In this document: one piece after another, positions 4,603 through 26,625 of the stretch | How positions within the stretch are numbered: the stretch's first letter is position 1 | Layout: every line of letters begins with the position of its first letter | From: a virus | Lineage: Duplodnaviria > Caudoviricetes | Virus record (IMG/VR): IMGVR_UViG_3300023178_000006 | Direction: 5' to 3' (one strand) | Length of the DNA stretch: 64,000 nt | The notes under the pieces: model-generated | What the model was told of the DNA's origin: nothing | What the model saw: the letters and a program-made list of their open reading frames with translations, nothing else | Databases searched by the model: none | Program-made: the position numbers and the translations under genes

Positions 4603-5031
4603 ATGAAAGTATTAGTCTTTGGACTTCCGGGTTCAGGCAAAAGTACGTTATCAGAACCACTCGCTGAGTTGGTTGAAGGTGTCTGGTTAAATGCAGACGC
4701 AGTAAGAGAAGAATATGATGATTGGGACTTCAGTGATGAAGGTCGTATGAGACAAGCAATGAGAATGAAATATCTTTCGGATGGTGTCTCTAAAGCGGGG
4801 AAGATTGCGATTACAGATTTCGTTTGTCCGTTCCAAAAAGCACGTGACGAGTTTAAACCAGATTATACAATTTGGATGAACACAATCAAAGAGGGAAGGT
4901 TTGAAGATACAAATAAAATTTTCGAAAATCCTGAAGAAGCCGATTATATCGTTGATGCATTTAGACCTCAAGAAGAATTGAAGTTAGAACCAATCTTAGA
5001 AAGGGCATTTAGAAAATGGCAAGCTCAGTAA
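4603..5031 (+). CDS. Adenylylsulfate (APS) kinase-like P-loop kinase
   Basis: GLPGSGKST P-loop, LNADAVR (cf. LDGD.IR) and DFVCP (cf. SFISP). Confidence 0.65.
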   Translation: MKVLVFGLPGSGKSTLSEPLAELVEGVWLNADAVREEYDDWDFSDEGRMRQAMRMKYLSDGVSKAGKIAITDFVCPFQKARDEFKPDYTIWMNTIKEGRFEDTNKIFENPEEADYIVDAFRPQEELKLEPILERAFRKWQAQ

Positions 5032-5237
5032 GTGCTAAAAGACATATTGCGAAAACACTCACGTGGAGAGTATTAGCAACCACTGATACTTTTCTTATCG
5101 CATGGTTAATTACAGGTCAATGGGATTGGGCAGCAGGGATTGCATCAATCGAAGTTGCAACCAAAATGATTCTGTATTATTGGCATGAGAGAGTTTGGTA
5201 TAAACATATAAACTATGGAGTAGAAAGGAATGATTAG
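5016..5237 (+). CDS. DUF2061-like small membrane protein
   Basis: RHIAKTLTWR...K..LYYWHERVW pattern. Confidence 0.7.
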   Translation: MASSVSAKRHIAKTLTWRVLATTDTFLIAWLITGQWDWAAGIASIEVATKMILYYWHERVWYKHINYGVERND

Positions 5238-5655
5238 TCCAGAAGAAGCATTCGATTATAAGAAACCAACAGTTCAAATGTTGGGTAGATGGCAGCCTTG
5301 GCACGACGGTCATACACAATTATTCAAAAAAGCCTTGACAATCACGGGACAAGTTGTTATAATGGTACGTGACGTTTTCAATTATGATGGAGATGCGGGT
5401 GCAGGACGCACAGTAACTCAAGATGATAATCCATTTGGAATGGTACAAGTCATACATGATATTGAAAAAGGATTAGCAGAACACGGTTACTTGAATGGTC
5501 GTGAGTATTTAATATTGGAAGTACCTAACATCGTCGATATATCGTATGGACGAGGAGTTGGTTACACATTTACAGAGCATGATTTAGGAGAAGAAGTACA
5601 TAATATTTCTGCGACAAAGATTAGAGCTCAAATGAGAGAAGAAGGTAAATTATGA
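5230..5655 (+). CDS. HxGH-class nucleotidyltransferase (cytidylyltransferase-like fold)
   Basis: MLGRWQPWHDGH and C-terminal ISATKIR. Confidence 0.75.
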   Translation: MISPEEAFDYKKPTVQMLGRWQPWHDGHTQLFKKALTITGQVVIMVRDVFNYDGDAGAGRTVTQDDNPFGMVQVIHDIEKGLAEHGYLNGREYLILEVPNIVDISYGRGVGYTFTEHDLGEEVHNISATKIRAQMREEGKL

Positions 5656-6254
5656 AGTTAGTATATTTTCCAGACCCAATTTTGGCGAAGGAACTTGAGG
5701 AAGTCAATCTTGAGAATCCAGGATTTGATGCAGTTCAATTAAAGAAAGATATGGTCGAACTTATGATAAGCAAAAAGGGTTTAGGACTCAGTGCTTGTCA
5801 AGTTGGTTTAGACTATAAACTATTTGTTATGGGAGAAGATGCTGAGACCGCGATTATGGTAATCAATCCAGAAATCGTATCAGTCAGCGAAGAACAAGTC
5901 AACGAAGTTGAAGGATGTTTAAGTTTCCCAGATGTATTCATGCAAATTAAAAGACCATCATTCGTAATCGCAAAATGGTTTGACGAAAATATGCAAGAAC
6001 AAACAGGTAAGATTGAAGGTTATGGAGCGAGATGTTTCCTACATGAATATGAACACCTTCAAGGAATTACCTTTAATAAAGTCGTATCTCGTGTAAAGTA
6101 TGAAAGAGCACTTAAAAAGAAAAGTAAGATTGTGAAACAAAGAGGGATGTTAGCTAAGTATCTTTCTATGATGAAACAAACTGAAGACCATAGTGTAAAA
6201 GTTGAAAAGGCTGATGAAGACGTCACGTTAGATTTAAACACAGCCAAGGAGTAG
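5652..6254 (+). CDS. def: Peptide deformylase
   Basis: GLGLSACQVG, EGCLS and HEYEH motifs. Confidence 0.9.
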   Translation: MKLVYFPDPILAKELEEVNLENPGFDAVQLKKDMVELMISKKGLGLSACQVGLDYKLFVMGEDAETAIMVINPEIVSVSEEQVNEVEGCLSFPDVFMQIKRPSFVIAKWFDENMQEQTGKIEGYGARCFLHEYEHLQGITFNKVVSRVKYERALKKKSKIVKQRGMLAKYLSMMKQTEDHSVKVEKADEDVTLDLNTAKE

Positions 6255-9029: not shown

Positions 9030-9034
9030 AGTAG

Positions 9035-9063
9035 TTGACATTTCACGGTACCTGTGTTATAAT
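9035..9063 (+). promoter_or_regulatory. Sigma70-type early promoter for gp43
   Basis: TTGACA 9035-9040, N17, TATAAT 9058-9063. Confidence 0.85.
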
Positions 9064-9086
9064 GGTACCTCTAACAAAAGTAGATT

Positions 9087-11633
9087 ATGACAATGACTTC
9101 ATTTTACACTTCCGTAGAACGCTACGGTAAGAATATTTTATGGCGAGGATATGAGAACGGTAAACGTTTCTCGTATCGTGTTCCATTTAAACCCACACTA
9201 TATCTTCATACACCAAAGAAAGGTGGTGACTTCAAGTCGTTGATTGGTGGTAAAAGTCTACATCCTCAAAAGTTTGGTGAAATGCGTGAAGCTAAAAACT
9301 TTATTGAAGAGTATAAAGGTGTCGCTGGTTTCGAAGTATTTGGTTCAACAAACTTCGTTACACAATTCATTCAAGAACATTACCCAGAAGAAGTAAGATT
9401 TAATATTGCTGATGTGAACATCGTATCTTTCGATATTGAGGTTGACATTCGTGATGGATTCGCAGATATTGAACAAGCAAATAATGAAATTACTTCTATC
9501 GCATATAAATCATCAAAGTCTAAAAAGTACTTCCTACTTGGTCGTAAAGATTATGATAAAACAAAAACGATAACTGGTATTGACCCAGATAATATCGTAT
9601 TCGCAAAATTCGATACTGAAGCTCAATTGCTCCAAGGATTTATTAAACTATGGACTGCTGACTATCCAGATATTGTAACCGGTTGGAACGTAGAATACTT
9701 TGATATACAATACATCGTAACACGTATTATAAGACTACTTGGTGAAGAATCCGCAAAGAAACTTTCTCCTTGGAAATCGATTGACCAAAAACGTAGAGAG
9801 GTATTCGGTAAAGTTCAAGCAACATACAAAATTTCTGGTATGTCTGTTATTGACTATATGGATGCGTTTAAAAAGTTTGGTTATAAGTATGGTCCACAAG
9901 AATCATATAAACTTGACCACATCGCTCATGTTATTCTTGGTGAAAAGAAACTTGATTATTCTGAATACGGTTCATTGACTGCTTTATATGACGAAAACCC
10001 ACAACTCTATCTCGACTATAACTTAAAAGATACACACCTCATTCAAAGAATGGAAGAAGAAACATCTCTTCTCGCGTTGGTAATGACTGTTGCTTATGGT
10101 GGTGGTGTAAACTATAATGATGCATTTGGTACTGTGGGTATTTGGGAATCTACAATTTATCGTAGACTCATTGCTGACAAAGTTGTTCCTCCAGTTAAAG
10201 ATTCGCCTGGTCAACGTATGGGTGAACTCGTTGGTGGTTACGTAAAAGACCCAAAACCAGGAATGTATCCTTGGGTTGTATCATTTGACTTAAACTCTCT
10301 GTATCCTCATTTAATGTTGCAATACAATATGTCACCTGAAACATATCTTCCTAATGAACGTGAAGTTGTAACACAAGACATGGTACTCAATAGTGAGTTT
10401 AAAAATACGAATACAAATATGTCGGTTGCTGCAAATGGTGTTTGTTTTAGAAACGATGAAGTTGGTATTATTCCAAGTATCATTGACGAATACTATAATA
10501 ATCGTTCTGTGATTAAGAAACAAATGATTGCAGTTGAACAACAATTCGAAGTTGAAACTGACCCTGTTGAAAAGAAAAGACTGAAACGAGAAATGAATCA
10601 ACTTCATAATTCTCAAATGTCAATCAAAATTGCTATGAACTCTCTTTATGGTGCGACAGCAAATATCTACTTCTTATACTATATTAACGAAATGGCTGAA
10701 GCAATCACTACATCTGGTCAGTTAAGTATTCGATATGCTCAAAAATCTGTAAATGATTATCTCAACAAGATACTCAACACGAAAGATAAAGATTATATCG
10801 TATACATTGATACTGATTCAATTTACGTAAACTTTGGTCCATTCATCAAAGAAGTATTCGGTACAGTAGACATTGACCGTAAGCAAGGTGAAGAATTCTT
10901 AGATAAAGTATGTTCTACTAAAATCGAACAAATCATCGAACAAGGATATGAAAAACTTGCAAATGACATGGGTGCATATCGAAACGCGATGGTTATGAAA
11001 CGTGAAAAGATTACTGACCGTTCAATCTTTATCGCAAAGAAAAGATATATCCTTAATGCTTTGAATAGTGAAGGTGTTCACTATGAAGAACCAAAAGTTT
11101 CTGTTACTGGTTTAGAATCAGTTCGCTCATCGACACCTGAAATATGTCGTGAAAAGATGAAACAAATCTTTAAGGTTATCTTGTCTGGTGATGAAACAGA
11201 AACACAACAATTTATTGCGAAGTTCCGTGATGAATTTCGTAGCTTACCTCCCGAAGATATTGCTAAAACTTCGGGCACAGACAATATCAATAAATACATG
11301 AGTAAGGAAACTCTATATAGAAAAGGATGTCCAATGCATGTTCGTGGTTGTATTCTCTACAATCACTTCCTTACACAGAAAAAACTCGATAAGAAATACG
11401 AAAAGGTTCAATCAGGTGACAAGATAAAATTCATTTATCTTAAAGTGCCTAATCCTATTCGTGAAAATATGATATCGTTCCCCGGTGTACTTCCTAAAGA
11501 ATTAGGACTCGACAAGTATATTGATTATGATACTCAATTCGATAAAGTGTTCTTAGGACCAGTCGAAAACATTATTGAACCTCTGGGTTGGAAATCCGAA
11601 AAAGTAAATACAATTGAGGACTTTTTTACATGA
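9087..11633 (+). CDS. gp43: Family B DNA polymerase
   Basis: Exonuclease DIEV and YNLKD; polymerase SFDLNSLYP, K..MNSLYG, YIDTDS and KKRY. Confidence 0.96.
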   Translation: MTMTSFYTSVERYGKNILWRGYENGKRFSYRVPFKPTLYLHTPKKGGDFKSLIGGKSLHPQKFGEMREAKNFIEEYKGVAGFEVFGSTNFVTQFIQEHYPEEVRFNIADVNIVSFDIEVDIRDGFADIEQANNEITSIAYKSSKSKKYFLLGRKDYDKTKTITGIDPDNIVFAKFDTEAQLLQGFIKLWTADYPDIVTGWNVEYFDIQYIVTRIIRLLGEESAKKLSPWKSIDQKRREVFGKVQATYKISGMSVIDYMDAFKKFGYKYGPQESYKLDHIAHVILGEKKLDYSEYGSLTALYDENPQLYLDYNLKDTHLIQRMEEETSLLALVMTVAYGGGVNYNDAFGTVGIWESTIYRRLIADKVVPPVKDSPGQRMGELVGGYVKDPKPGMYPWVVSFDLNSLYPHLMLQYNMSPETYLPNEREVVTQDMVLNSEFKNTNTNMSVAANGVCFRNDEVGIIPSIIDEYYNNRSVIKKQMIAVEQQFEVETDPVEKKRLKREMNQLHNSQMSIKIAMNSLYGATANIYFLYYINEMAEAITTSGQLSIRYAQKSVNDYLNKILNTKDKDYIVYIDTDSIYVNFGPFIKEVFGTVDIDRKQGEEFLDKVCSTKIEQIIEQGYEKLANDMGAYRNAMVMKREKITDRSIFIAKKRYILNALNSEGVHYEEPKVSVTGLESVRSSTPEICREKMKQIFKVILSGDETETQQFIAKFRDEFRSLPPEDIAKTSGTDNINKYMSKETLYRKGCPMHVRGCILYNHFLTQKKLDKKYEKVQSGDKIKFIYLKVPNPIRENMISFPGVLPKELGLDKYIDYDTQFDKVFLGPVENIIEPLGWKSEKVNTIEDFFT

Positions 11634-12382
11634 AAATATGTGTAGTCACAAACTTTAGAACTGGAAGTACCAGTTTTACGTTATTAAAAGCAGACGAATA
11701 TAATGCACCTTATAAAGGTGAAATGTTTACGTTCTATCCAAGACCTTATGGACTAGGTGCAGCAAAAGCACAATGGCAAATCGTAAATTACTTTGAAGAT
11801 TGTACAGACGAAGAAAAGACACGCTTACAATCAACAGAATTATTTGTTAATCAACTTGAGCAAGGACACTCATGTTGTTTTAAACTTATGCCTGGTCAAT
11901 TAGTCGATGAAGAACTCAGAGATAGAATGTTTAAATCAATGGATAAGATTTATTATCTTTATCGTGAAGATTTTGCAGCTCAAGCTAAGAGTTGGATTGC
12001 GGTAAGACAACAAGACCATTTGGATTTTGCGAGAACAGGATTCGTAAGAGATGAATGGTTAGAAAGACAATATTTAGAAAAAGCAGCAGAAAGACAAAAG
12101 GTACTTCACCTAGGAACACTAGGTAAAGGTGAAACTGTTCGACATCATATCGATTTTGGTCAAAGACCAGCAGCAGGACCAAATGAAACTGAAAAGCGCT
12201 TAATTAATCAATTAATAGAAGGATACGAATGGATGGGTGAAATGTATAAAAAGTATCCTGGTGAACTTGTAAGAATGGAAGATTATTTTACTGACGAAAA
12301 GTATAATCCTTATAATAGGGAAATCACTTGGGCAGTAGAACCAGAAATTCCAGATTTTATCCCAAGTAAATGTTTTGAATAA
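11630..12382 (+). CDS. Sulfotransferase-like protein (Stf0/P-loop type)
   Basis: N-terminal NFRTGSTS (5'-PSB loop-like) and YLYREDFAAQAKSW (3'-PB-like, cf. Stf0 R...L.QAVS); ATGA overlap with gp43. Confidence 0.55.
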   Translation: MKICVVTNFRTGSTSFTLLKADEYNAPYKGEMFTFYPRPYGLGAAKAQWQIVNYFEDCTDEEKTRLQSTELFVNQLEQGHSCCFKLMPGQLVDEELRDRMFKSMDKIYYLYREDFAAQAKSWIAVRQQDHLDFARTGFVRDEWLERQYLEKAAERQKVLHLGTLGKGETVRHHIDFGQRPAAGPNETEKRLINQLIEGYEWMGEMYKKYPGELVRMEDYFTDEKYNPYNREITWAVEPEIPDFIPSKCFE

Positions 12383-12735: not shown

Positions 12736-12951
12736 ATGGTAGTAATATATGGCAAAGAACAGTGTGCCTATTGTACGATGGCAAAAAATCTTTGTGAACA
12801 GAAAGGGTTGGAGTACCAATACAAAATGTTAAATGAAGATTATACTCCACCAGAATTTTTTGACTTATTCCCAGGTGCTAGAACATTCCCTCAAATTGTT
12901 GTTGATGGAAAGCACGTTGGTGGATTCAACGAACTAAAGGAAAGTTTATAA
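12736..12951 (+). CDS. Glutaredoxin (NrdC/NrdH-like)
   Basis: CAYC active site, TFPQI and GGF. Confidence 0.88.
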   Translation: MVVIYGKEQCAYCTMAKNLCEQKGLEYQYKMLNEDYTPPEFFDLFPGARTFPQIVVDGKHVGGFNELKESL

Positions 12952-13259
12952 TGAAATATTTAATTGTAATTGCAGCATTACTTATCTCTAATACAGCTAA
13001 TGCTGAAGATAGATTTGCACCTATTCGTTCAACAATGAATACTTGTGCAGCTTGCCACGGACCTCAGGGTCAAGGTGGAATCGGTCCTAAATTACAAGGA
13101 CAATCTGCTGATGAAATCATTTCAAAATTATTAGCATATAAAAATAAAGAAGTTGTAGGACCACAATCTGCAATGATGTGGCCGACAGCAGGTATGCTAT
13201 CTGAAGGTGATATTGGTATGATTGGTGTTTATATTGCACAAGGATATCCAAATGAGTAG
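12951..13259 (+). CDS. Class I monoheme cytochrome c (c553/c4-like) with signal peptide
   Basis: Hydrophobic leader ending in ANA, CAACH heme motif, P.L.GQ...I...L..YK, and distal AMM methionine. Confidence 0.82.
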   Translation: MKYLIVIAALLISNTANAEDRFAPIRSTMNTCAACHGPQGQGGIGPKLQGQSADEIISKLLAYKNKEVVGPQSAMMWPTAGMLSEGDIGMIGVYIAQGYPNE

Positions 13260-13931: not shown

Positions 13932-13960
13932 TTGACATTTACGAAAAACTATAGTATAAT
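13932..13960 (+). promoter_or_regulatory. Sigma70-type early promoter
   Basis: TTGACA 13932-13937, N17, TATAAT 13955-13960; predicted start near 13967. Confidence 0.87.
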
Positions 13961-14228: not shown

Positions 14229-15572
14229 ATGGAATATAACGTAAAAGTAATGTCTGCGCAAGAGATTGTAGACCTTCTTAATACGGGAAAATTAAATCCC
14301 GACCCAATTGGCCAGAGACCTCCCGTCTCTTCCGGCGTAAAAAAATCAATCGCAATTATCAAAGGACTCATGTCCGGTTATGGTGCTGGAATGTTAACCA
14401 TTCGAGACATTCGCAATGATGTCGAAGCACAAAAGATTTATGGTTGTGATTATCTTGTAATTGATGGCGGACACCGCTGTCGAGCTCTTAAAGCTTACTA
14501 TACTGGAAAGATTCTCATCGATGGTGAGAAATACATTGATTCAGATTTTAATCTGAGTGATGTCGATATACCAGTTGACGTAAGAGTATGTACTTCTTCT
14601 GAAGCTTCACGTCTATTTAGAAATATCAACACGACAACACCAACCAACTTTATGGAAATGGTAATGTCTGATGAAGAATCTAAAGTGTGTGAGTATATAC
14701 GTAGAAAAACTTCGTATGTACGCGAGTATTCTAATGAACCACATCCGTTGTTCGAAAAACAAATTAAACCTGATGGTAAAGTTGTTGTGCCAAACTGGGT
14801 TGATGACCAACCCAACCCAAGACGTAGATGGGACGAGTTTGTTGCTATCGCAATAATCCGTTCTATGGGTAAAGGTTTAGTTGATGCTGGTCAAACAGAA
14901 ATCGAAACACTATGTCGTGAAGATAATGAGATTCCTAAAACTGTACAATCAAGAGTAGACGATTTCTTAGACGCTGCTTTAAAATTACGTGTATTCCGTA
15001 AGTTTGGTTTAAATGACGCAATCTTCTCGGCTTTTTCTGTGTATTACTTTGGATTGGTTGAACAATTCGATAAGTTTAAAATTGATAATGATGAGGACTT
15101 CTTTAAGTTCTTTATGAAAACTTATACACTACTTACTGGCAAAAATGATACGTCTCTCGAAAAAGAAACGATTGAATACAATGATACCACCTTCTTTGTT
15201 AAGGAATTTGTCAGAAAGTATCGAAGACACTCAGCTGCAGGTAATGCACAGAAACTTGTATATAAACAGTTTACAATTCACGGAAACTGTGATATAATAC
15301 CAGATGGAATTACAGTTTTAGATACGAAACGTTCTCTAGGTAAACTCGATAGAGAAGAAGCATTAGCAGCACAAGGTTATGTTTGTGCAATTGATGGAAA
15401 ACCTTTAGAACTTGACGATGCCGTATTTGGACATGATACTCCTTGGTCACAAGGTGGTAAGAGTGTAATTGAGAATGGTGCGATGGTAAGAAGCGAACAT
15501 AACAGAAACATGGGAACTCTTACTCTCGATGAATATAAAATGATTTTAACTATGAGGGAAACTAATGCCTAA
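14229..15572 (+). CDS. DUF262/ParB-like domain plus C-terminal HNH nuclease (GmrSD-like architecture)
   Basis: VIDGGHR (cf. DUF262 DGQQR), F.NINT, and C-terminal GHDTPWSQGG...N...EHN HNH motif. Confidence 0.65.
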   Translation: MEYNVKVMSAQEIVDLLNTGKLNPDPIGQRPPVSSGVKKSIAIIKGLMSGYGAGMLTIRDIRNDVEAQKIYGCDYLVIDGGHRCRALKAYYTGKILIDGEKYIDSDFNLSDVDIPVDVRVCTSSEASRLFRNINTTTPTNFMEMVMSDEESKVCEYIRRKTSYVREYSNEPHPLFEKQIKPDGKVVVPNWVDDQPNPRRRWDEFVAIAIIRSMGKGLVDAGQTEIETLCREDNEIPKTVQSRVDDFLDAALKLRVFRKFGLNDAIFSAFSVYYFGLVEQFDKFKIDNDEDFFKFFMKTYTLLTGKNDTSLEKETIEYNDTTFFVKEFVRKYRRHSAAGNAQKLVYKQFTIHGNCDIIPDGITVLDTKRSLGKLDREEALAAQGYVCAIDGKPLELDDAVFGHDTPWSQGGKSVIENGAMVRSEHNRNMGTLTLDEYKMILTMRETNA

Positions 15573-15909
15573 AAATAATAACCCCGAAGCGGTCAACGTT
15601 CTTCAAGAATGTATCGACCTTCAGTTGAAAAAATCTAGGGATTATCAGAATCCTAATTCAACTGTACAACAAGCACAATACTATCCTAATGGTATTGTAA
15701 CTATTCACGATATCATGCATGCAAAAATGCTACGTATGAAATCGGTTATGGAAGCTATGCAAAGTGATGATTATAATCCAAACTTCGAATCTCTTGAAGA
15801 TTCAGCAAAAGATTTAATTAACTATGCGAGTTTCTTTGTTTCATTTTGTCGTGGTAAAATACCAGGCCAAGATTCCCGCAATGATGCATTTAATAAGAGG
15901 ACTAAATAA
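15565..15909 (+). CDS. Nucleotide-modification-associated domain protein (Nmad1/DUF1599-like)
   Basis: KKSRDY...K..R....ESLEDSAKDLINYA pattern. Confidence 0.55.
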   Translation: MPKNNNPEAVNVLQECIDLQLKKSRDYQNPNSTVQQAQYYPNGIVTIHDIMHAKMLRMKSVMEAMQSDDYNPNFESLEDSAKDLINYASFFVSFCRGKIPGQDSRNDAFNKRTK

Positions 15910-16163
15910 TGAGTAATGTGATTATACCTTCAAGTGATGAAGATAAGAAAAGAATTAAAGGTGCTATGGAAGAAATGAGTAATTCATTTACTAGAGTAGA
16001 AGCCGAACGTGATTTTCAAAAAGAAGCAATTAATGCCTTAGCTGACGATGTAGATATTCCTAAAAATATTCTACGTAAAATGGCTAGGATTTATCATAAA
16101 CAAAATCTACCAGCAGTTGTAGCTGAACTAGATGATATTGAAACACTATTGGAAACAATTTAA
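15909..16163 (+). CDS. Small dsDNA-binding protein (T4 DsbA/GapR-like)
   Basis: 84 aa, helical, ending ..LRKMARIYHKQN..., similar to remembered DsbA homologues. Confidence 0.5.
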   Translation: MSNVIIPSSDEDKKRIKGAMEEMSNSFTRVEAERDFQKEAINALADDVDIPKNILRKMARIYHKQNLPAVVAELDDIETLLETI

Positions 16164-16834
16164 TGTTAAGAGTTAGAGATATTCGTAATCAAATCGTAAC
16201 TGATTTTCTTCAAGGTGATTGGGTTATTGATAGAACAGGTGCTAAGACTGTTGAAGTCATTGGTGCCACATTTATTGCTGATGAAGATTATGTTATTCGT
16301 AAACCAGCTTATGAATACATCAAACGTGAATTGCGTTGGTATGAAATGCAATCACTGTATGTTGATGACATCCCTGGTGAAACTCCACAAATTTGGAAAG
16401 ACATCTCATCTGAAGAAGGTAAGATTAATTCAAACTATGGTTGGTGTATCTATTCTGATGAGAATGGTAATCAATACCAAAAAGTAAAACAAGAATTAAA
16501 GTCTAATCCAAACTCAAGACGTGCGACAATGATTTATAATCGACCAAGCATGCATACTGATTTTAACAAAAATGGTATGAACGATTTTATGTGTACTTAT
16601 GCTAATACGTTCTATATCAGAAATAATAGATTAGTTTCGCATTATATTATGCGTTCAAACGATGCAGTCTTTGGTTATAATAATGATTATGCTTGGGCAA
16701 AACACGTTCAAGAAAGACTTGCAAATGACTTAGGTGTTGAAGTTGGTGAATTAATTTGGACCGCTTCTAACTTTCACGTATACGAAAGACACTTTAATTT
16801 TATACAGGAATATATTGATGGCAATAAAGGTTGA
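16163..16834 (+). CDS. gp42: dCMP hydroxymethylase-type thymidylate-synthase-family enzyme (T4 gp42-like)
   Basis: Co-linear with T4 gp42 as recalled: D.TG.KT.E.IGA.F.ADE, DIPGETP.IW, INSNYGW, SRR..MIY.RPSM, DFMCT, MRSND.VFG..NDYAW (cytosine-specifying Asp) and HVY.RHF. Confidence 0.88.
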   Translation: MLRVRDIRNQIVTDFLQGDWVIDRTGAKTVEVIGATFIADEDYVIRKPAYEYIKRELRWYEMQSLYVDDIPGETPQIWKDISSEEGKINSNYGWCIYSDENGNQYQKVKQELKSNPNSRRATMIYNRPSMHTDFNKNGMNDFMCTYANTFYIRNNRLVSHYIMRSNDAVFGYNNDYAWAKHVQERLANDLGVEVGELIWTASNFHVYERHFNFIQEYIDGNKG

Positions 16835-17036
16835 AGTTACAGATGAACAATGTGATGAAATTGTGGTTGAAAGTCTTAATAATGCAATTGAACATTTCGA
16901 AGAAGCGTTCGAAGACAGAGCAAATGACGATGGTGGTTTAAACTACGCTCATTTCTCAACTAACATTCAAGAAGATTTAGCTGAAATACAAAAACACATT
17001 GAAGCATTTAAAACAGTGAAAAGTTATTATGTATAA
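16815..17036 (+). CDS. Hypothetical acidic protein
   Basis: 73-aa ORF overlapping both neighbours. Confidence 0.55.
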   Translation: MMAIKVEVTDEQCDEIVVESLNNAIEHFEEAFEDRANDDGGLNYAHFSTNIQEDLAEIQKHIEAFKTVKSYYV

Positions 17037-17490
17037 ATGGGATTCAAGATTCCTTAATATAGCGAGAGAAATCTCAACTTGGAGTAAAGACCCATCTAAA
17101 AAAATTGGTGCAGTATTCGTATCTGATGAACGTAGAATATTAGCAACTGGTTATAATGGGTTTCCTCAAGGTATTGGAGATAGTGAAGATAGGTATTTAG
17201 ATAGAGATATCAAATATGCATATGTAGTACATGCTGAGAAGAACGCAATATATAATGCTACATATCACGGAATCACTTTAAAAGATTCAACGCTATATGT
17301 ATGGGGATTGCCCGTTTGTAGTGAATGCGCTAAAGGTGTTATTCAAGTAGGAACAAAACGAGTTGTAATGCCCTCAATGGATTCTATGGGATTTGTCGAT
17401 GAGACAAGAGAAAAGTGGATTCATTCTTGGGAATTAAGTCATTCGTTATTTAGAGAAGCATTAATTGATGTTGATTTTGTTGACATTTAG
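17029..17490 (+). CDS. cd: dCMP deaminase
   Basis: S.DP..K.GA, TGYNG, HAEKNAI and PVCSEC. Confidence 0.9.
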   Translation: MYKWDSRFLNIAREISTWSKDPSKKIGAVFVSDERRILATGYNGFPQGIGDSEDRYLDRDIKYAYVVHAEKNAIYNATYHGITLKDSTLYVWGLPVCSECAKGVIQVGTKRVVMPSMDSMGFVDETREKWIHSWELSHSLFREALIDVDFVDI

Positions 17491-17508
17491 ATAAAAGTAT
17501 GGTATAAT
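17480..17508 (+). promoter_or_regulatory. Sigma70-type early promoter for the glycosyltransferase/methyltransferase genes
   Basis: TTGACA 17480-17485, N17, TATAAT 17503-17508. Confidence 0.82.
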
Positions 17509-17510
17509 AT

Positions 17511-18743
17511 ATGGGTATGAAAAAATCAGTTTTAGTTATTGATAATCTCACAGAAACTTTCGATGGTTCTGTAGTACGTTCTGGACTTCAAAAGAGTTCT
17601 AAACTTGATGCCAGAGCCTTCAGCAAATTAGGTTATCAAACAACTTATATGTATTGTGGGAGAGTAGTAGACCCAGGATATGAATACATGCACTATGGTG
17701 TAAACTCCCTTGGTGCAAAAGACCAAGCAATGAAAGAAGGTAAGAATCCTTCTCGTGTTAGTAGACACTATATTAAAAGATATTTAGAAAGTGTTAAGGA
17801 TATAATTGAAGACCACGATTATATCATCGCTCATTGTCATAGTGTTTCTATGATTACTACACTCAATCAACTCGTCAAGAATAAAAGAATTATGTTTATT
17901 ATTCATGATGTTATTGATTTAATGTGGTGTTATGGATTCAGTGATGTTATTCGTAGAATGAGAAAGACAGATAGGAATATGTGTTATATTGCTACGAACT
18001 CAAACTACTCAATTCAAAAGATGAATGACATTCATGAGCGTGCCATTAAAGCTGGTTATGAAGATATTCCATTAAGAGGTGATGATGCTTTTGATGGATT
18101 CATCGAACACTTTGTTTGGACTGACGAAAAAGTTACATCTGAAGATATTGAACAAGTTGAGAATAAGTCAGCAATCATAGGAAGATACTCTACAGATAAG
18201 TTCCACCACAAAGTATACGGATATAATAATCCACAAAACACGATTGTTCATTATGGTGTACGTGACCCAAGACGAGATAAGACTGGAAGATACTTTGAAA
18301 ATCTTCAAAAGAAAGCAAATGCTTATATGGAAAATCTTCCAGATGAAGAATTATTCGAAGCAATTAAAACATCTCAAAGTATTATACTACCTTGTTTTCA
18401 TGAGGGATTTGGTTATACCGCATTTGAAGCTGGAATCTATGGAGTAGTTCCAGTTATTTTAGTTAAACAATTAGACCACACACAACAAATGATACACGCA
18501 ACCTCAGAATATCTTTTACGTGCTAATGTTAAACACTATACCGCAGACTTCAACGATGCAGATGACATATATAAAGCTATAGACGAAAGTATTAAGGTGA
18601 CTCCTGAAGATAGGAGAAACATAAGCCGTAATCTTTTAAAATATTTTACTGTGACTAAATACGTCGAAGAAAGAATTTCACTATTAGATGGAATGGAAGA
18701 ACGTATTTCTAGTGAGGTTGACCTTGAGGATTTTTTTGTATGA
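17511..18743 (+). CDS. GT-B (GT4-like) glycosyltransferase, candidate DNA hmC glycosyltransferase
   Basis: PCFHEGFGYTAFEAG contains the E-x7-E motif of retaining GT-B enzymes; lies next to gp42. Confidence 0.72.
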   Translation: MGMKKSVLVIDNLTETFDGSVVRSGLQKSSKLDARAFSKLGYQTTYMYCGRVVDPGYEYMHYGVNSLGAKDQAMKEGKNPSRVSRHYIKRYLESVKDIIEDHDYIIAHCHSVSMITTLNQLVKNKRIMFIIHDVIDLMWCYGFSDVIRRMRKTDRNMCYIATNSNYSIQKMNDIHERAIKAGYEDIPLRGDDAFDGFIEHFVWTDEKVTSEDIEQVENKSAIIGRYSTDKFHHKVYGYNNPQNTIVHYGVRDPRRDKTGRYFENLQKKANAYMENLPDEELFEAIKTSQSIILPCFHEGFGYTAFEAGIYGVVPVILVKQLDHTQQMIHATSEYLLRANVKHYTADFNDADDIYKAIDESIKVTPEDRRNISRNLLKYFTVTKYVEERISLLDGMEERISSEVDLEDFFV

Positions 18744-19933
18744 TTAAACACGCATCTATCGTACCACTTATCGGTGGTGAAACTATTGGCTCAGAATTAG
18801 CGTTTGGTGAAAAGCCAACGTATATGATGTCATACGAGGCATTCGAAGCAAATGATGCTCATGCCCGTAATTACTATAGTGGTACTCCGTACTATGTTCT
18901 AGATAAGGGTGAGAATCCCTCTGAGAGTGTAGATGTAGTATCTTCTGTATGTCCATGTGCTGGACTATCTCAGCTATCCCACGGATTTGGTGATGATAAT
19001 CCAAATAACCAATGGATGGAAATTACCGCAAGACATGTACTTGAAAATGTAAAACCAAAAGTATTTTGGGGAGAAAATGCTCCAGGGTTTGCAGGTAAAA
19101 TTGGTGATACAGTAAGAAACAAACTAAAACAGATTGGAAAAGAAAACGGATATACTATGAGTGTATATCGAACAAGGTCACTATTACATGGTGGTCCACA
19201 AATTCGAGAGCGTTCATTCTATTTCTTTTGGAAAGACGAACGTACTCCTCTTTTAAGTTGGTACAATAAAGAACATACTAAAATCGAAGATGTTATTCGA
19301 AGTGTAGCAGGCTCAAATAGTTTTACTGACCCAATCAATCCAAAAACTCCAAGTAAAGATGACCTTTATTATAAGTTCGTATTAGACCATATACATGGTG
19401 GAATTACTCATAAAGAATTCTTTGAAATTGCTGAACCACAAAGAGTAAGAGCACAAGACATGTTTTCATATATAGAACGTAGCGGTTATGATTACAAGCA
19501 AGTCGGCGAATGGATGGAACAAAATGGATACGAAAAAGAAGTCGAGAAGTGTAATTACAAGTATGAGAAACTCAAAGCAGGCGGAAATATTATGCGACGT
19601 GGGACGATTATTCCTAAGGATTATATTGGTGCCTTTGTTGGGCACTATCCTACTTGTCTTACTCACCCTGATGATGATAGGTATATTAATTATCGCGAAG
19701 CTATGGCGATTATGGGATTACCTAACGATTTTGAATTACTCAACCCCAAAAAATCGGCGAACCACATCTGTCAAAACGTACCCGTACAAACAGCCCGAGA
19801 CATGGCTACGGAAGTAAAGAAATACTTAGAGGGTAAATTACAAATGGTTGATACTGATTACGTAGTTCAGTATAATCATCAACAGAAAAATAACTACGTA
19901 GAAAAATGCGATACACTTGAGGCTTTTATATGA
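18740..19933 (+). CDS. DNA cytosine-C5 methyltransferase-like protein with atypical motif I
   Basis: CPCAGLS (IV), GENAPG (VI), PQIRER (VIII), REAMAIMGLP (IX) and QNVP (X); motif I reads IVPLIGG. Confidence 0.7.
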   Translation: MIKHASIVPLIGGETIGSELAFGEKPTYMMSYEAFEANDAHARNYYSGTPYYVLDKGENPSESVDVVSSVCPCAGLSQLSHGFGDDNPNNQWMEITARHVLENVKPKVFWGENAPGFAGKIGDTVRNKLKQIGKENGYTMSVYRTRSLLHGGPQIRERSFYFFWKDERTPLLSWYNKEHTKIEDVIRSVAGSNSFTDPINPKTPSKDDLYYKFVLDHIHGGITHKEFFEIAEPQRVRAQDMFSYIERSGYDYKQVGEWMEQNGYEKEVEKCNYKYEKLKAGGNIMRRGTIIPKDYIGAFVGHYPTCLTHPDDDRYINYREAMAIMGLPNDFELLNPKKSANHICQNVPVQTARDMATEVKKYLEGKLQMVDTDYVVQYNHQQKNNYVEKCDTLEAFI

Positions 19934-20532
19934 AACACATGATTTTTGATTTTGAGACAATGGGTACAGAACCTATTGACTGTGCGGTTGTCGATGTATC
20001 AGCATTTGTTTTTGATTGGGATAGATTCGAAACTCGTCCATATACTTTAAAAGACGTACAGAACGTTAAAAGATGGAAGCTCTCAGTAAAAGACCAAGTA
20101 GAAAATTATAACTATAAGGTTGAAAATTCTGTAATTGAATTTTGGCAACAACAAGACAAAGAAGTACGTGATAAAGTAAAACCACAACCAACAGATTTAA
20201 CAGTAAAAGAATTCGTAAATGAGTTTCACGATTTTATTATTGATTCAAACATAAAATACTGGTGGAGTCGTAGTAACGCTTTCGACCCAGTAATTTTAAC
20301 AAGACTATTCGATTCACAAGGAAAGAAACAACACTTATATGAGTATTGTAAATATTATCTCGTACGTGACACCCGTACGTGGATTGATGCAAAATTAAAC
20401 TTTCCTAAGAAAAATGGATTTACAATTCCTGAGTGGGACGAAGCGTTTAAAGCACATGATAGTTCATGGGATATACTTATTGATGTATTAAGAATGCAAC
20501 TAATTCATAGAGCAGAATTTGATTTAGATTAA
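19930..20532 (+). CDS. dexA: DEDD 3'-5' exonuclease (DexA-like)
   Basis: IFDFET, WSR..AFD and H.S..D...D motifs. Confidence 0.7.
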   Translation: MKHMIFDFETMGTEPIDCAVVDVSAFVFDWDRFETRPYTLKDVQNVKRWKLSVKDQVENYNYKVENSVIEFWQQQDKEVRDKVKPQPTDLTVKEFVNEFHDFIIDSNIKYWWSRSNAFDPVILTRLFDSQGKKQHLYEYCKYYLVRDTRTWIDAKLNFPKKNGFTIPEWDEAFKAHDSSWDILIDVLRMQLIHRAEFDLD

Positions 20533-20542
20533 GGATTATATT

Positions 20543-21397
20543 ATGGAAATAAAAATACCAGTAGAAAATTTAAGAGATTATAAGTTGTTCGTTGGCGCAC
20601 CAATGTATGGTGGTCAATGTTCTGGACTATTTACAAAATCAACTAATGATTTGAGTATGTTATGTACTCAATATGGAATACCAATTAAATACTATTTCTT
20701 ATTCAATGAGAGTCTAGTACAAAGAGCTCGTAACTATGTCGTTGATGAGTTTATGAGAAGTGATTGTACTCACTTATTGTTTATTGATAGTGATATTGGT
20801 TTCAATCCTAGAGATGCTCTAGCACTTTTAGGTATTCAAACACAGGACCCAGAAAAATACGATATTGTAACAGGTCCTTATCCAAAGAAAACTATCGCTT
20901 GGGAAAAGATTGCTCAAGCAGCTGATAGAGGATTTCATAAAGAGAATCCATTTAATTTGGAACAATTCACATCAGACTTTGTCTTTAATCCTGTAAAAGG
21001 AACTAAAGAATTTAAAGTATCAGAACCCGTTGAAGTTCAAGAAGCCGGGACAGGATTTATGCTTATCCCAAGGTCAGCATTAGAAAAATATCGTGATGCT
21101 TATCCTGAACTTCAATACAAACCAGACCATGCACGTACTGATAACTTTGATGGGTCAAGAAAGATTACAGCATTCTTTGATTGTGTAATCGACCCACAAA
21201 CGAATAGGTACTTGTCAGAGGATTATTTCTTTTGTCATAAAGCAAGAGACATAGGACTCTCAGTTTGGATGTGTCCTTGGATGCAGATAAACCATGTTGG
21301 AACTTATATTTTCAAAGGTAATATGGCAGCACTAGGTCAACTAGGCGCTTCCCCTACTGCTAATGCTTCTTCTAACAAAAAAGCGTATAAAAAGTAA
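20543..21397 (+). CDS. GT-A fold glycosyltransferase-like protein
   Basis: SLVQRARN, HLLFIDSDI (DxD), GTGFMLI and LSEDYFFC. Confidence 0.7.
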   Translation: MEIKIPVENLRDYKLFVGAPMYGGQCSGLFTKSTNDLSMLCTQYGIPIKYYFLFNESLVQRARNYVVDEFMRSDCTHLLFIDSDIGFNPRDALALLGIQTQDPEKYDIVTGPYPKKTIAWEKIAQAADRGFHKENPFNLEQFTSDFVFNPVKGTKEFKVSEPVEVQEAGTGFMLIPRSALEKYRDAYPELQYKPDHARTDNFDGSRKITAFFDCVIDPQTNRYLSEDYFFCHKARDIGLSVWMCPWMQINHVGTYIFKGNMAALGQLGASPTANASSNKKAYKK

Positions 21398-21405
21398 AAT
21401 AACAG

Positions 21406-21434
21406 TTGACAACGCAACCAACTTGGTATATAAT
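21406..21434 (+). promoter_or_regulatory. Sigma70-type early promoter for gp45
   Basis: TTGACA 21406-21411, N17, TATAAT 21429-21434. Confidence 0.83.
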
Positions 21435-24662: not shown

Positions 24663-25178
24663 ATGAGTTTATTATCAGTTTATAGAAAGAACTCTCAAAT
24701 CGATATCCCTACCCTCGCTACTGAAGGGTCAGCATGTTTTGACATTAAATCTTATTTTAAATCAGGACAAAAGATTCGTTGCTTCAATCCAGTCAATAAA
24801 GAGGTTGAAGTATTAACAAAAGAAATTCAACAAGAAGTATCATTCCTTCTTCATCCAGCTCATAGAGCATTTATACCAACAGGTTTAATATTCGACATTC
24901 CCGAAAATCACGTATTGAAAATGTATATTCGTAGTAGTGTGGCAGCTAAAAAGGGATTAGCATTAACAAATGGTGTTGGTATTATTGATAGTGATTACGT
25001 AGACGAAACACATATTTTAGTGACTAATATTTCAGATGCTATTGTACGTATTAATAGTGGTGAAAGGTTAGCGCAGTGTAAGTTGGAAAGAAATTTAGAA
25101 ACAGAAATATGGGAGACCGATAAACCACCTTCTCAGAAAACTGATAGAGAAGGTGGGATAGGAAGTACTGGAGATTAA
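24663..25178 (+). CDS. dut: Trimeric dUTPase
   Basis: GSACFD, RSS...K.G, GIIDSDY, GERLAQ and R.GG.GSTG. Confidence 0.92.
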   Translation: MSLLSVYRKNSQIDIPTLATEGSACFDIKSYFKSGQKIRCFNPVNKEVEVLTKEIQQEVSFLLHPAHRAFIPTGLIFDIPENHVLKMYIRSSVAAKKGLALTNGVGIIDSDYVDETHILVTNISDAIVRINSGERLAQCKLERNLETEIWETDKPPSQKTDREGGIGSTGD

Positions 25179-25577: not shown

Positions 25578-26024
25578 ATGACTGGATTAAATATAAACCA
25601 CTTAACCCCTTTTGCTGTCGGATTCGATAGAGTGTTTGACAGATTAGTTGAATTCCCACAAACTCACGCAGCAACAGGATTCCCACCTTATAATATCAGA
25701 AGAAATAAAGACGGTGATAAGTTCTCTATTGAACTTGCATTGGCTGGTCTCGATATTAATGATGTGGATATTGAAGTTAAAGAAGATGTACTTACAGTAA
25801 AATCTACTTGGGACGAAAAACCAGAAGATAATACTTTAGTAATACACAAAGGAATTTCTCAAAAGAAATTTACTCGTAGCTTTACATTAGCTGACGACTT
25901 AAAAGTAGTTGGTGCTAACTTCAAAAATGGTTTGTTGGTCATTGGACTCGAAAGGATTATTCCTGAAGATAAAAGACCACAAAAAATCAAAATTGACAAC
26001 AAGAAAGAATTCTTGGTAGGTTAA
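25578..26024 (+). CDS. hsp20: Small heat-shock protein (Hsp20/IbpA-like)
   Basis: FPPYNI, IELALAG, HKGIS...FTRSFTL and NGLL.I.LER.IPE. Confidence 0.93.
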   Translation: MTGLNINHLTPFAVGFDRVFDRLVEFPQTHAATGFPPYNIRRNKDGDKFSIELALAGLDINDVDIEVKEDVLTVKSTWDEKPEDNTLVIHKGISQKKFTRSFTLADDLKVVGANFKNGLLVIGLERIIPEDKRPQKIKIDNKKEFLVG

Positions 26025-26029
26025 TTTTT

Positions 26030-26059
26030 AATCCGGGAGGGCGCAATGCTCTCCCGATT
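26030..26059 (+). terminator. Intrinsic terminator after hsp20
   Basis: CGGGAG...CTCCCG stem followed by ATTTT. Confidence 0.6.
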
Positions 26060-26091
26060 TTATAACATGTTATTGAAAGGAAATTTAAATT

Positions 26092-26625
26092 ATGACTATT
26101 GAAGGAAATAAGGTACCTAACGTTACCTTTAAAGTTAGGGAACTCAATAAGGAAACTGCAGAATACGAATGGACTCACCCAAATACCGATTGGTACTTTG
26201 CTGGTAAGCGAGTAATTGTATTCTCACTACCTGGTGCATTCACACCAACTTGCTCAACTTTCCAAGTGCCTGGATTTGAAGCTCGTTATGATGATTTCGT
26301 AAAAGAAGGAATTGATGATATATATTGTATGTCTTGTAATGATTCTTTTGTTATGAATGCTTGGGCAAAAGACCAAGGAGTGAAAAAAGTAAAATTCATT
26401 CCAGATGGTTCATGTGAATTTACCGCAGGTATGGATATGTTAGTTGCGAAAGACAATGTAGGATTCGGTAAAAGGTCTTGGAGATATGCTATGATTGTAA
26501 ATGATGGTGTAGTTGAAAAGGTTTTTGAAGAGCCTGGCAAATCTGATGATTGTGCAGATGACCCTTATGGAGAAACTTCGCCTGGAAATATTCTTGCATT
26601 TTTACAAGGTACTCTAGAAAATTAA
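26092..26625 (+). CDS. Peroxiredoxin (Prx5-like)
   Basis: LPGAFTPTCS peroxidatic motif, S.ND.FVM.AW and RSWRYAM. Confidence 0.9.
   Translation: MTIEGNKVPNVTFKVRELNKETAEYEWTHPNTDWYFAGKRVIVFSLPGAFTPTCSTFQVPGFEARYDDFVKEGIDDIYCMSCNDSFVMNAWAKDQGVKKVKFIPDGSCEFTAGMDMLVAKDNVGFGKRSWRYAMIVNDGVVEKVFEEPGKSDDCADDPYGETSPGNILAFLQGTLEN

Follow-up and report, generated by a model that had tools for sequence, protein, structure and literature searches.

The question raised by this locus is how the cytosines of an uncultured T4-like phage, known from salt-marsh and marine metagenomes, are modified, and whether the outcome is the glucosylated hydroxymethylcytosine (hmC) of T4 or a different base. The window, i.e. 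the whole stretch of 64,000 nucleotides analysed here, had been described in a sequence-only reading as carrying a contiguous cytosine-modification cluster at 15565-21397. Our analysis confirms that this cluster is real: its ORFs are co-directional (+ strand) and tightly packed, with intergenic gaps of -20 to +20 nt, and all the genes named in that reading are present, although dsbA and a 73-aa ORF were missing from its list. The interval corresponds to the cytosine-modification portion of the early/replication module of a T4-like phage. The reading that we favor, with a probability of roughly two in three, is that hmC is made by a T4-type route and then glycosylated by a cassette-encoded GT-B enzyme, and maybe by a GT-A enzyme, the cassette being swapped among relatives. 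The features on which the argument draws are the following.

4603..5655, + strand: APS-kinase-like P-loop kinase, DUF2061 and small HIGH-type nucleotidyltransferase (PF01583 1.3e-9; PF09834 1.7e-22)
11630..12382, + strand: Stf0-like sulfotransferase candidate, outside the 15565-21397 interval (model pLDDT 89.6)
13932..13960, + strand: perfect sigma70-type promoter match (12/12 consensus) ahead of the nuclease-Nmad1-dsbA-gp42-cd unit; a consensus match only, as promoter-like sites are in total no more numerous than chance would give
14229..15572, + strand: nuclease-like protein of 447 aa with a DGGHR motif and a C-terminal HNH-like region; 8-nt overlap with the next gene
15565..15909, + strand: Nmad1/DUF1599-like helical protein of 114 aa (phrog_18404 'hydrolase' 6.9e-13)
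15909..16163, + strand: dsbA-like late transcription regulator, an ordinary T4 gene (PF11126 3.5e-6; phrog_639 9.3e-15)
16163..16834, + strand: dCMP hydroxymethylase, gp42 homologue (E 2.8e-69 to T4 dCMP hydroxymethylase 1b5e)
16815..17036, + strand: 73-aa ORF
17029..17490, + strand: dCMP deaminase, cd (PF00383 1.6e-18; phrog_174 5.9e-38)
17480..17508, + strand: perfect sigma70-type promoter match with extended -10 (12/12 with TG), directly 5' of the GT-B gene
17511..18743, + strand: GT-B (GT4-like) glycosyltransferase, sole cassette occupant here (PF00534 2.7e-4, weak)
18740..19933, + strand: cytosine-C5 DNA methyltransferase-family protein (PF00145 1.1e-18, 68 bits against a cut-off of 22)
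19930..20532, + strand: DexA-like 3'-5' exonuclease (DEDD), an ordinary T4-type gene (PF16473 7.9e-16; phrog_255 1.7e-33)
20543..21397, + strand: GT-A fold glycosyltransferase, conserved neighbour of the clamp gene (phrog_1574 1.9e-61)

Dozens of metagenomic phage contigs show this gene order, and hence the arrangement is not a product of chance. Every gene is covered in part, at uneven depth, by contigs from three metatranscriptome studies (two of salt marsh, one of seawater), in contrast to the flat depth (~80x) of a DNA run. The 73-aa ORF has no family match in Pfam and PHROG searches, and no homologue has been reported in related loci.

The first step of the pathway is read from the gp42 homologue, which is ~55% identical to that of T4 and keeps all catalytic and specificity residues: Asp145, Cys148, Asp171 and Asp179 (T4 numbering), together with the motifs NDFMCT and RSNDAVFGYNNDYAW. 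These four residues are retained in all 23 distinct clade homologues. The catalytic Cys (148) and cytosine-specifying Asp (179) noticed earlier are borne out. According to PMC13326640, N177D confers dCMP specificity, L143D/E a hydroxymethyl-type product, and D169N is the hallmark of the 5-hydroxy-dCMP synthases, which were described in 2026. The 169-equivalent position is Asp in this protein and in all 23 clade homologues; since the diagnostic Asn is absent, the predicted base is hydroxymethyl-C rather than hydroxy-C. Judged by every diagnostic residue known, the enzyme is a 5-hydroxymethyl-dCMP synthase, and a pre-replicative hmC route of the T4 type, with the full hydroxymethylase residue signature, is present. 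As in T4, dCMP would be hydroxymethylated, phosphorylated and incorporated by gp43 instead of C. It counts against this pathway that neither a dNMP kinase nor a proven dCTPase was identified within the window; the T-even pathway of T4 comprises gp42, gp56, gp1 and alpha- and beta-glucosyltransferases, and homologues of gp56 and gp1 were not found in the window. A 171-aa protein at 24663-25178 is of the trimeric dUTPase/dCTP-deaminase type.

The comparative analysis over related loci places the GT-B gene in a variable slot between conserved genes. In the IMG/VR loci that extend 4 kb or more upstream of the methyltransferase, gp42 lies 1.3-4.9 kb upstream of that gene in 37/37 cases (34 contigs), always in the order gp42-cd-cassette-methyltransferase, and GT-A is found downstream of the methyltransferase in 40 of 45 related loci, a conservation that, inside a single phage clade, reflects inheritance in part and is not independent proof of functional coupling. 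A semi-independent recurrence is provided by Pseudoalteromonas phage XG4, whose DNA polymerase is only 33% identical to that of the window and in which gp42, an NTP-transferase-kinase, two GT-B-like proteins and a methyltransferase homologue are consecutive. What changes is the cassette. Its largest protein cluster in relatives (21 ORFs, about 410 aa) matches T4 alpha-glucosyltransferase (AGT; PF11440, 1.2e-72), and other relatives carry there an NAD-epimerase with a UDP-galactopyranose mutase, GT1, a cytidylyltransferase, an hmU-DNA-kinase-like (HMUDK-like) kinase, a GT10-like gene, an NTP-transferase-kinase, a ribulose-P epimerase, an inositol-1-P synthase, a UDP-glucose dehydrogenase or, in some cases, a sulfotransferase-like gene. 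Against one relative (L024), identity is 98% for dsbA, 80% for gp42, 72% for cd, 77% for the methyltransferase, 84% for dexA, 88% for GT-A, 89% for gp45 and 93% for gp43, and divergence is maximal in the cassette, which has no homology. The cassette is a hypervariable gene-replacement hot spot, and its turnover would diversify the DNA sugar among related phages.

The cassette GT-B itself is unrelated to AGT: hhalign gives a probability of 1.3% for a relation to the AGT-type cassette proteins. It weighs against the favored reading that sequence comparison links the protein to none of the characterised DNA glycosyltransferases. All six of its IMG/VR homologues occupy the same slot, and none was found in INPHARED. 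Its ESM-Atlas model matches GT4 clusters (TM 0.68-0.72), and the AlphaFold model of the GT-A (pLDDT 88.8) has GT-A matches in PDB, BFVD and Atlas, with top PDB matches that are all GT-A enzymes (best, STIV A197, E 9e-9); both folds are confirmed. Following replication, GT-B, under its own consensus promoter, would move a sugar from a host-pool NDP-sugar onto the hydroxymethyl group, in the slot filled in sister phages by AGT homologues or other sugar genes. Glycosylated hmC is likely, and the phage probably decorates its DNA with a sugar by means of glycosyltransferases of a non-T4 kind. The earlier proposal of a base different from T4 glucosyl-hmC remains plausible, because GT-B sits where sister phages have AGT homologues and is unrelated to them.

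The role of GT-A is less clear. The enzyme has invariant R61/R63, D82, D84 and E226-D227-Y228, i.e. the R...DxD...EDY motif reported for phage DNA GT-As, and relatives lie near Tet/JBP genes in Cr30 and DLP6. Orthologues ~50% identical and in the same position are nonetheless found in phiM19, where TS is canonical, and in Ochrobactrum phage OC; these two phages and HTVC023P, ACG-2014f and ctz7E20, all GT-A-bearing, lack both a gp42-type enzyme and Tet/JBP, a distribution that counts against the favored reading. A two-step glycosylation is for this reason no more than a possibility: GT-A may attach a further or alternative sugar, its acceptor being uncertain.

The methyltransferase was invoked earlier for methyl capping of the sugar, a notion at odds with its PC, ENx and QxRxR motifs, which denote C6/C5 attack on cytosine in DNA and not a sugar O-methyltransferase. 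It also matches PADLOC MTase_II (3.6e-21), in alignments that always begin at residue ~61, and its non-canonical motif I (PLVGG) is family-wide in an alignment of 43 sequences. ATGA overlaps at both ends couple it translationally to GT-B and dexA. Its targets are most likely non-hydroxymethylated cytosines, whether C left over in phage DNA or C in other DNA, and it would have no part in sugar capping. Two observations here count against the favored reading. The methyltransferase is under purifying selection, which argues that unmodified cytosine is available somewhere, and GATC is absent from the whole window (0 against about 214 expected), denoting a strong site-specific pressure of a kind that glycosylation of cytosine, if fully protective, might have been expected to lift.

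Several alternatives must be weighed against this background. The DNA may contain plain or singly glucosylated hmC, with one or both glycosyltransferases acting on host envelope glycans, virion proteins or small molecules and residing in the module by inheritance only. The cell-wall-type GT4 enzymes that are the nearest structural neighbours of GT-B favor a non-DNA acceptor, as do the GT-A orthologues that directly precede the clamp gene in phages lacking an enzyme that generates hydroxymethyl-pyrimidines and the ~65% of mined phage GT contigs in which Pyle et al. saw no base-modification neighbour. We nevertheless consider this unlikely, given the occupation of the AGT slot by GT-B, the invariable position of the cassette between gp42/cd and the methyltransferase, and the motif and Tet/JBP neighbours of GT-A.

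It is more improbable still that the methyltransferase serves a post-replicative back-up, methylating escaped cytosines that a 2OG-Fe(II) oxygenase, present in some strains, would hydroxylate for the glycosyltransferases to finish. Pathways of this kind (MT, 5mYOX and GT) are established in phages (PMC8256090; preprint), six contigs with ThyS and 5mYOX near GT-A have been reported, and PF13640 oxygenase ORFs occur between the methyltransferase and dexA (199 aa; L009, L010) or before gp42 (241 aa; L017-L019). The window's own cluster, however, has no oxygenase, a search of the 101-kb and 68-kb relatives and of the complete XG4 genome gave no Tet_JBP match, the oxygenases found are of a prolyl-hydroxylase type frequent in marine phages, and S-TIM5-type cyanophages have the methyltransferase alone. 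Very little probability attaches to the methyltransferase marking host DNA with 5mC for a phage modification-dependent nuclease (DGGHR/HNH, 14229-15572) that would spare glycosyl-hmC DNA. The nuclease gene comes first in the same transcription unit and runs into the following gene, and nuclease and methyltransferase co-occur in about half of the loci; yet many methyltransferase-bearing loci lack it, and its family assignment is weak, with no Pfam match and a single PADLOC hit (REase_II, 1.1e-5) covering only residues 368-424, in the HNH part. We know of no precedent for such a scheme.

The favored reading, of hmC glycosylated by a swapped cassette, relates the locus to several known systems. 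The cd, dexA and dsbA genes, the location within the replication module and the true AGT-family proteins of sister cassettes recall T4, which differs in lacking both a GT-A and a C5-cytosine methyltransferase, just as this phage lacks AGT and BGT homologues. The ThyS- or 5mYOX-associated phage DNA GT clusters (Burke et al. 2021, PMC8256090; Pyle et al. 2023, bioRxiv 10.1101/2023.12.21.572611) likewise adjoin GT-A and GT-B to a thymidylate-synthase homologue, dCMP deaminase, clamp gene, methyltransferases, epimerases and APH-type kinases, with an R...DxD...EDY/F motif in GT-A. ThyS-linked clusters have been mined already and the present one extends a known kind, in which it stands apart by a C5-methyltransferase that accompanies a pre-replicative ThyS route without 5mYOX, and by a cassette, with putative products, that conserved genes flank and that is exchanged as a whole from one close relative to another. 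The arabinosyl-5-hydroxycytosine clusters of the T4-like phages RB69, DLP3 and Thanatos (PMC13326640, PMC12838424) also set a TS homologue beside GTs and NDP-sugar synthesis genes, and their NTP-transferase-kinase fusion resembles that of XG4 and one related locus (L050); D169N separates them from this clade. The S-TIM5-type orphan methyltransferase shares ~31% identity over 93% of its length, motif I PLVGG and the catalytic motifs, but is solitary in its own genomes: a canonical ThyA is close by, and gp42, Tet/JBP and GT genes are missing from its neighbourhood.

Sulfate capping of the sugar, also suggested earlier, is a contextual proposal. The Stf0-like model finds its best structural match in Stf0 (1tex, Z 9.3), followed by a sulfotransferase domain (Z 8.4), and also matches P-loop kinases from Z 8.1; R10, S13, R112 and S121 are invariant, Atlas neighbours bear sulfotransferase Pfams, and homologues lie between cd and GT, i.e. 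in the cassette, in three related loci (L011, L020, L021). The PF01583 match of the upstream kinase covers its N-terminal half only, and the nucleotidyltransferase has weak NMN/PPAT-type matches. The pair recurs in L051, and the kinase lies near a sulfotransferase-like gene in L013. These genes could supply PAPS; alternatively, the kinase may act on nucleotides.

The Nmad1-like gene is a lead: it matches PHROG 'hydrolase' families, and 76 of its 100 nearest ESM-Atlas clusters bear PF07659 DUF1599, presumably the Pfam family behind the name Nmad1. The Pfam search itself gave no match. The protein has no profile similarity to the window's MazG. Homologues 65% identical abut gp42 in Serratia PS2-like phages and others sit next to the TS homologue in Xp12-like phages, making this possibly nucleotide pyrophosphatase-related protein a recurrent neighbour of thymidylate-synthase-family enzymes.

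The interval 15565-21397 is real and expressed: a T4-type 5-hydroxymethylcytosine (hmC) module to which glycosyltransferases unlike those of T4 are attached, at a site of cassette exchange. It constitutes a new variant among the ThyS-linked phage DNA-glycosylation clusters, which employ a thymidylate synthase homologue and have already been mined bioinformatically. The surrounding genes are those of an uncultured T4-like phage (gp41, gp47/46, gp43, gp45, gp44/62, regA, uvsY and baseplate genes), whose DNA polymerase shares no more than about 45% identity with that of any isolate. Near-identical DNA is present in many salt-marsh metagenomes, and a megablast search of INPHARED with the interval returned no match. 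The analysis bore out every gene that the sequence-only reading had placed in the interval, and brought to light two that it had not listed, dsbA and a 73-aa reading frame. The genes on which the argument turns are the following.

14229-21397 (+): eleven reading frames, with intergenic gaps of -20 to +20 nt
14229-15572 (+): 447-aa protein heading the operon, in which a DGGHR motif and, at the C-terminal end, an HNH-like region are seen; its gene shares 8 nt with the following one
17511-18743 (+): 410-aa GT-B glycosyltransferase, alone in the cassette
18740-19933 (+): cytosine-C5 methyltransferase homologue (MT)
20543-21397 (+): GT-A glycosyltransferase
11630-12382 (+): 250-aa protein encoded after gp43
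4603-5655 (+): APS-kinase-like gene, DUF2061 gene and small nucleotidyltransferase gene, flanked by a gp55-like gene and by the peptide deformylase gene ahead of gp47

Full (12/12) matches to a sigma70-type consensus occur at 13932, at 17480, directly before GT-B, and at 21406, before gp45. Metatranscriptome contigs from three runs contain pieces of every gene, at uneven depth as opposed to flat DNA coverage, and are not informative on transcript ends or levels.

The nature of the base is best approached through gp42. The 223-aa homologue (PF00303, 5.8e-24) aligns with the T4 structure 1b5e over residues 3-216 (E 2.8e-69), and the catalytic cysteine and cytosine-specifying aspartate attributed to it from sequence are indeed in place, since its DFMCT and NNDYAW align with the DFMCT and RNDYAW of T4 (C148 and D179). 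A 2026 paper shows that the so-called gp42 proteins of RB69 type in fact synthesise 5-hydroxy-dCMP (PMC13326640). In the E. coli ThyA numbering of that work, C146 is catalytic and N177D confers dCMP specificity, whereas L143D/E correlates with a hydroxymethyl product and D169N marks the 5-hydroxy enzymes (PMC13326640). The window enzyme has an acidic residue at the L143 position (N-D-FMCT) and keeps Asp at the D169 position (RSN-D), where RB69-type enzymes carry their marker Asn. Its motifs NDFMCT and RSNDAVFGYNNDYAW place Asp, Cys, Asp and Asp at the four diagnostic positions, and the same four residues recur in all 23 distinct gp42 homologues of the related loci. Because gp42 carries all four, it is predicted to make 5hm-dCMP from dCMP and methylene-THF, and the predicted base is hydroxymethyl-C, as in T4.

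Searches with the back-translated methyltransferase gathered 61 IMG/VR loci with identities of 47-93%. Gene-by-gene BLAST comparison of these loci reveals a conserved order: Nmad1-like, (dsbA), gp42, cd (dCMP deaminase), cassette, MT, (dexA), GT-A and gp45. The gp42 gene lies 1.3-4.9 kb upstream of MT in each of the 37 loci, on 34 contigs, whose upstream DNA extends for 4 kb or more, and GT-A lies downstream of MT in 40 of 45. The cassette between cd and MT comprises one to five genes and differs among otherwise close phages.

Cassette contents in syntenic relatives of the window
T4 alpha-glucosyltransferase (AGT) homologues (PF11440, 1.2e-72): most frequent type
NAD-epimerase, 363-aa protein without assignment and UDP-galactopyranose mutase: L024, the closest core relative, 7134-10008, replacing GT-B
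GT1 and 374-aa protein: relatives
Cytidylyltransferase: relatives
5-hmdU-DNA-kinase-like (HMUDK-like; PF18723, 3e-8 and 6e-8): L047, 5683-6750, and L044, 12-1067
GT10-like, NTP-transferase-kinase fusion, ribulose-phosphate epimerase, myo-inositol-1-phosphate synthase and UDP-glucose dehydrogenase: relatives, L047 included for the inositol-phosphate synthase
Homologue of the sulfotransferase-like gene of the window: L011, L020, L021

The cassette of L024 suggests a galactofuranosyl modification of hmC. The HMUDK-like cassettes, one of which (L047) has myo-inositol-1-phosphate synthase next to the kinase-like gene, hint at a phospho-activated, non-sugar hypermodification of hmC. In the distant Pseudoalteromonas phage XG4, gp42 is followed by an NTP-transferase-kinase and two glycosyltransferases, and the row closes with an MT homologue. 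Identity between the window and L024 drops towards the cassette from both flanks, through dsbA (98%), gp42 (80%) and cd (72%) upstream and through gp45 (89%), GT-A (88%), dexA (84%) and MT (77%) downstream, gp43 being 93% identical. Such a dip marks a hot spot of gene replacement whose flanking genes are linked to it. Divergence of MT in step with cassette type was considered as a sign of functional coupling and rejected; gp42, cd and dexA decay alike, so the pattern is attributed to linkage to the cassette. Contigs from the DNA run break at 19054, within the methyltransferase gene, which is consistent with co-occurring strain variants.

The two-step glycosylation put forward from sequence would involve both GT-B and GT-A. 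GT-B has a GT-B fold of two Rossmann domains, the C-terminal one of GT1/GT4 type: its ESM-Atlas model superposes on GT4 clusters with TM of 0.68-0.72 over 326-357 residues and the protein has weak GT1-type Pfam matches (PF00534, 2.7e-4). It shares with T4 AGT the position in the slot and not the sequence family: there is no PF11440 match, and hhalign gives a probability of 1.3% against the AGT-type cassette proteins. No homologue was found among isolated phages by tblastn, BLASTP against the two glycosyltransferases of XG4 was not significant, and a PDB sequence search yielded glycosyltransferase fragments alone (E > 0.2). The gene's position makes GT-B a putative DNA glycosyltransferase.

For GT-A, the leading matches of the confident structural model (pLDDT 88.8) in PDB, BFVD and the Atlas are all GT-A enzymes, and R61/R63, D82, D84 and E226-D227-Y228 are invariant in 22 sequences; sequence searches of PDB, Pfam, NCBIfam and PADLOC gave no match. 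The motif R...DxD...EDY/F has been described as the active site of phage GT-As that modify DNA and are relatives of the base-J glucosyltransferase (Pyle et al., bioRxiv 10.1101/2023.12.21.572611), and GT-A fits these enzymes in fold and, as far as the motif description goes, in active site. In Caulobacter phage Cr30, Stenotrophomonas phage DLP6, phages of the phiM12 type and Ochrobactrum phage OC, the orthologue lies just before the clamp gene. A Tet/JBP protein is encoded a few kb from the orthologue in Cr30 (8.7e-23; locus L004, 59353-60681) and DLP6 (1.1e-20; locus L003, 27179-28525), where these genes are annotated as 'SNF2 DNA repair protein'; both genomes lack a C5-methyltransferase, and a base-J-like glycosylation of hmU is possible in both. 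A hydroxymethyl-pyrimidine-making enzyme thus accompanies GT-A in the window, its clade, Cr30 and DLP6. Searches for Tet_JBP and PF00303 found neither a Tet/JBP nor a gp42-type enzyme in phiM19, OC, HTVC023P, ACG-2014f and ctz7E20, the sole PF00303 match among them being the canonical ThyA of phiM19. Since orthologues occur in phages without such a source of hydroxymethyl-pyrimidines, GT-A is a plausible but unproven DNA-modifying enzyme, and the same holds for its part as the second step of a two-step glycosylation.

A cytosine-C5 methyltransferase conserved in phages expected to contain no unmodified cytosine is the puzzle posed by this clade. MT matches PF00145 with 68 bits (cut-off 22) and many type II C5 enzyme models in PADLOC, and has motifs IV, VI, VIII, IX and X (PCAGLS, ENAPG, QIRERS, REAMAIMGLP and QNVPV). 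Across 43 aligned family members ENxP, QxRxR and QNVP are invariant or nearly so, and the Pro of PC is replaced by Val in XG4. Motif I, on the other hand, reads VPLIGG and not FxGxGG, with Phe replaced by Val/Ile and the first Gly by Leu throughout the family, including S-TIM5 and XG4; the acidic residue of motif II varies (E/D/S), and the Pfam and all PADLOC profile alignments begin only near residue 60. Marine metagenomes contain many members of the family, 2535 proteins with E <= 1e-5, and in S-TIM5-type cyanophages it occurs alone, with neither gp42 nor Tet. The window cluster differs from the post-replicative MT-5mYOX(TET)-GT pathway in having no Tet/JBP dioxygenase beside MT; Tet_JBP had no match among the cluster proteins, in relatives G002 (101 kb) and G003 (68 kb), or in the complete XG4 genome. 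Some relatives have 2OG-Fe(II) oxygenase reading frames (PF13640) directly after MT (L009, 11194-11793; L010) or before gp42 (L017, 4809-5534; L018; L019), and the window has none at either place. Our literature search found no account of a C5-methyltransferase within a ThyS-type cluster, and Pyle et al. list merely 'methyltransferases' as glycosyltransferase neighbours (bioRxiv 10.1101/2023.12.21.572611).

The simplest reading is that MT patches residual cytosine. The proposal that it caps the sugar with a methyl group fails, because its chemistry is aimed at cytosine C5. Sulfate capping, the other option raised from sequence, is a possibility through the 250-aa protein and the APS-kinase-like gene. 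The model of this protein (pLDDT 89.6) matches the trehalose sulfotransferase Stf0 best (Z 9.3) and next another sulfotransferase domain (Z 8.4), followed by P-loop kinases from Z 8.1, and Foldseek is ambiguous; there is no match in Pfam or among PDB sequences. R10, S13, R112 and S121 are invariant and no Walker GK[ST] is present, and the RTGST-type loop (compare the 5'-PSB R-[ST]-G-S-T) and the Arg/Ser pair (3'-PB) appear to resemble PAPS-binding motifs. The APS-kinase-like gene, for its part, could equally encode the missing nucleotide kinase. Sulfation of the hmC sugar, to a sulfated glycosyl-hydroxymethylcytosine, by the Stf0-like protein at 11630-12382, homologues of which occupy the cassette in three relatives, with PAPS supply helped by the APS-kinase-like gene and the small nucleotidyltransferase, is an unlikely outcome. 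Less likely still is an MT family with an altered cofactor pocket that acts on hmC or uses a non-SAM donor. The conserved methyltransferase and the possible sulfation are the two points deserving experiments, and the parts of the cluster are small and suit the E. coli reconstitution assays already applied to related clusters. More generally, whether restriction, CRISPR or type IV defences succeed is decided by hypermodification of phage DNA, and the enzymes behind it are also put to use in epigenetic sequencing. In this clade, which is plentiful in metagenomes from the sea and from salt marshes, nature has assembled a collection of alternative sugar cassettes at one fixed site beside a T4-type hmC synthase, with galactofuranose, inositol, phospho and sulfo chemistries as candidates.

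Upstream of gp42, the 114-aa Nmad1-like protein has no Pfam match, and its nearest Atlas clusters carry DUF1599. T4-like phages of the Serratia PS2 type encode homologues with 65% identity directly next to gp42, and weaker ones adjoin the TS homologue in phages of the Xp12 type, in whose DNA 5-methyl-C fully replaces C, a composition given for Xp12 (PMC8256090). The protein recurs beside base-modifying enzymes of the TS family. Its assignment as a MazG type was rejected: it matches the C-terminal part of the two-domain phrog_18404 and the window's MazG the N-terminal part, and hhalign to the MazG family of the window gives a probability of 1%. The 447-aa protein, which roughly half of the related loci encode (36-78% identity), has its sole match on the HNH part (PADLOC REase_II, 1.1e-5) and could be a modification-aware nuclease.

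The 64-kb window contains not one GATC, whereas shuffled sequences predict 214 +/- 14 (Markov z = -14.8); CATG is low as well (130 vs 213). The absence of GATC points to a GATC-directed pressure on the lineage despite its presumed modified cytosines. Counts of GATC are normal in most syntenic relatives (e.g. 76 vs 76 in L024), and the motif is also avoided in a scattered subset comprising L058-L063, L067, XG4 (8 vs 51) and ctz7E20 (0 vs 39). From these counts, the loss looks like a lineage-specific, host-driven avoidance.

Several further genes lie outside the interval. After regA, a 171-aa protein of the trimeric dUTPase/dCTP-deaminase family (24663-25178, +; PF00692, 2.7e-15) could have a role in clearing dCTP/dUTP. 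Auxiliary genes, for glutaredoxin, peptide deformylase, peroxiredoxin, Hsp20 and a cytochrome c-like protein, are found among the replication genes (12736-13259, 5652-6254 and 25578-26625). On the opposite strand, 15 kb upstream, lies an FkbM-family methyltransferase (166-888, -; PF05050, 4.8e-11), a family in which O-methylation of sugars is frequent.
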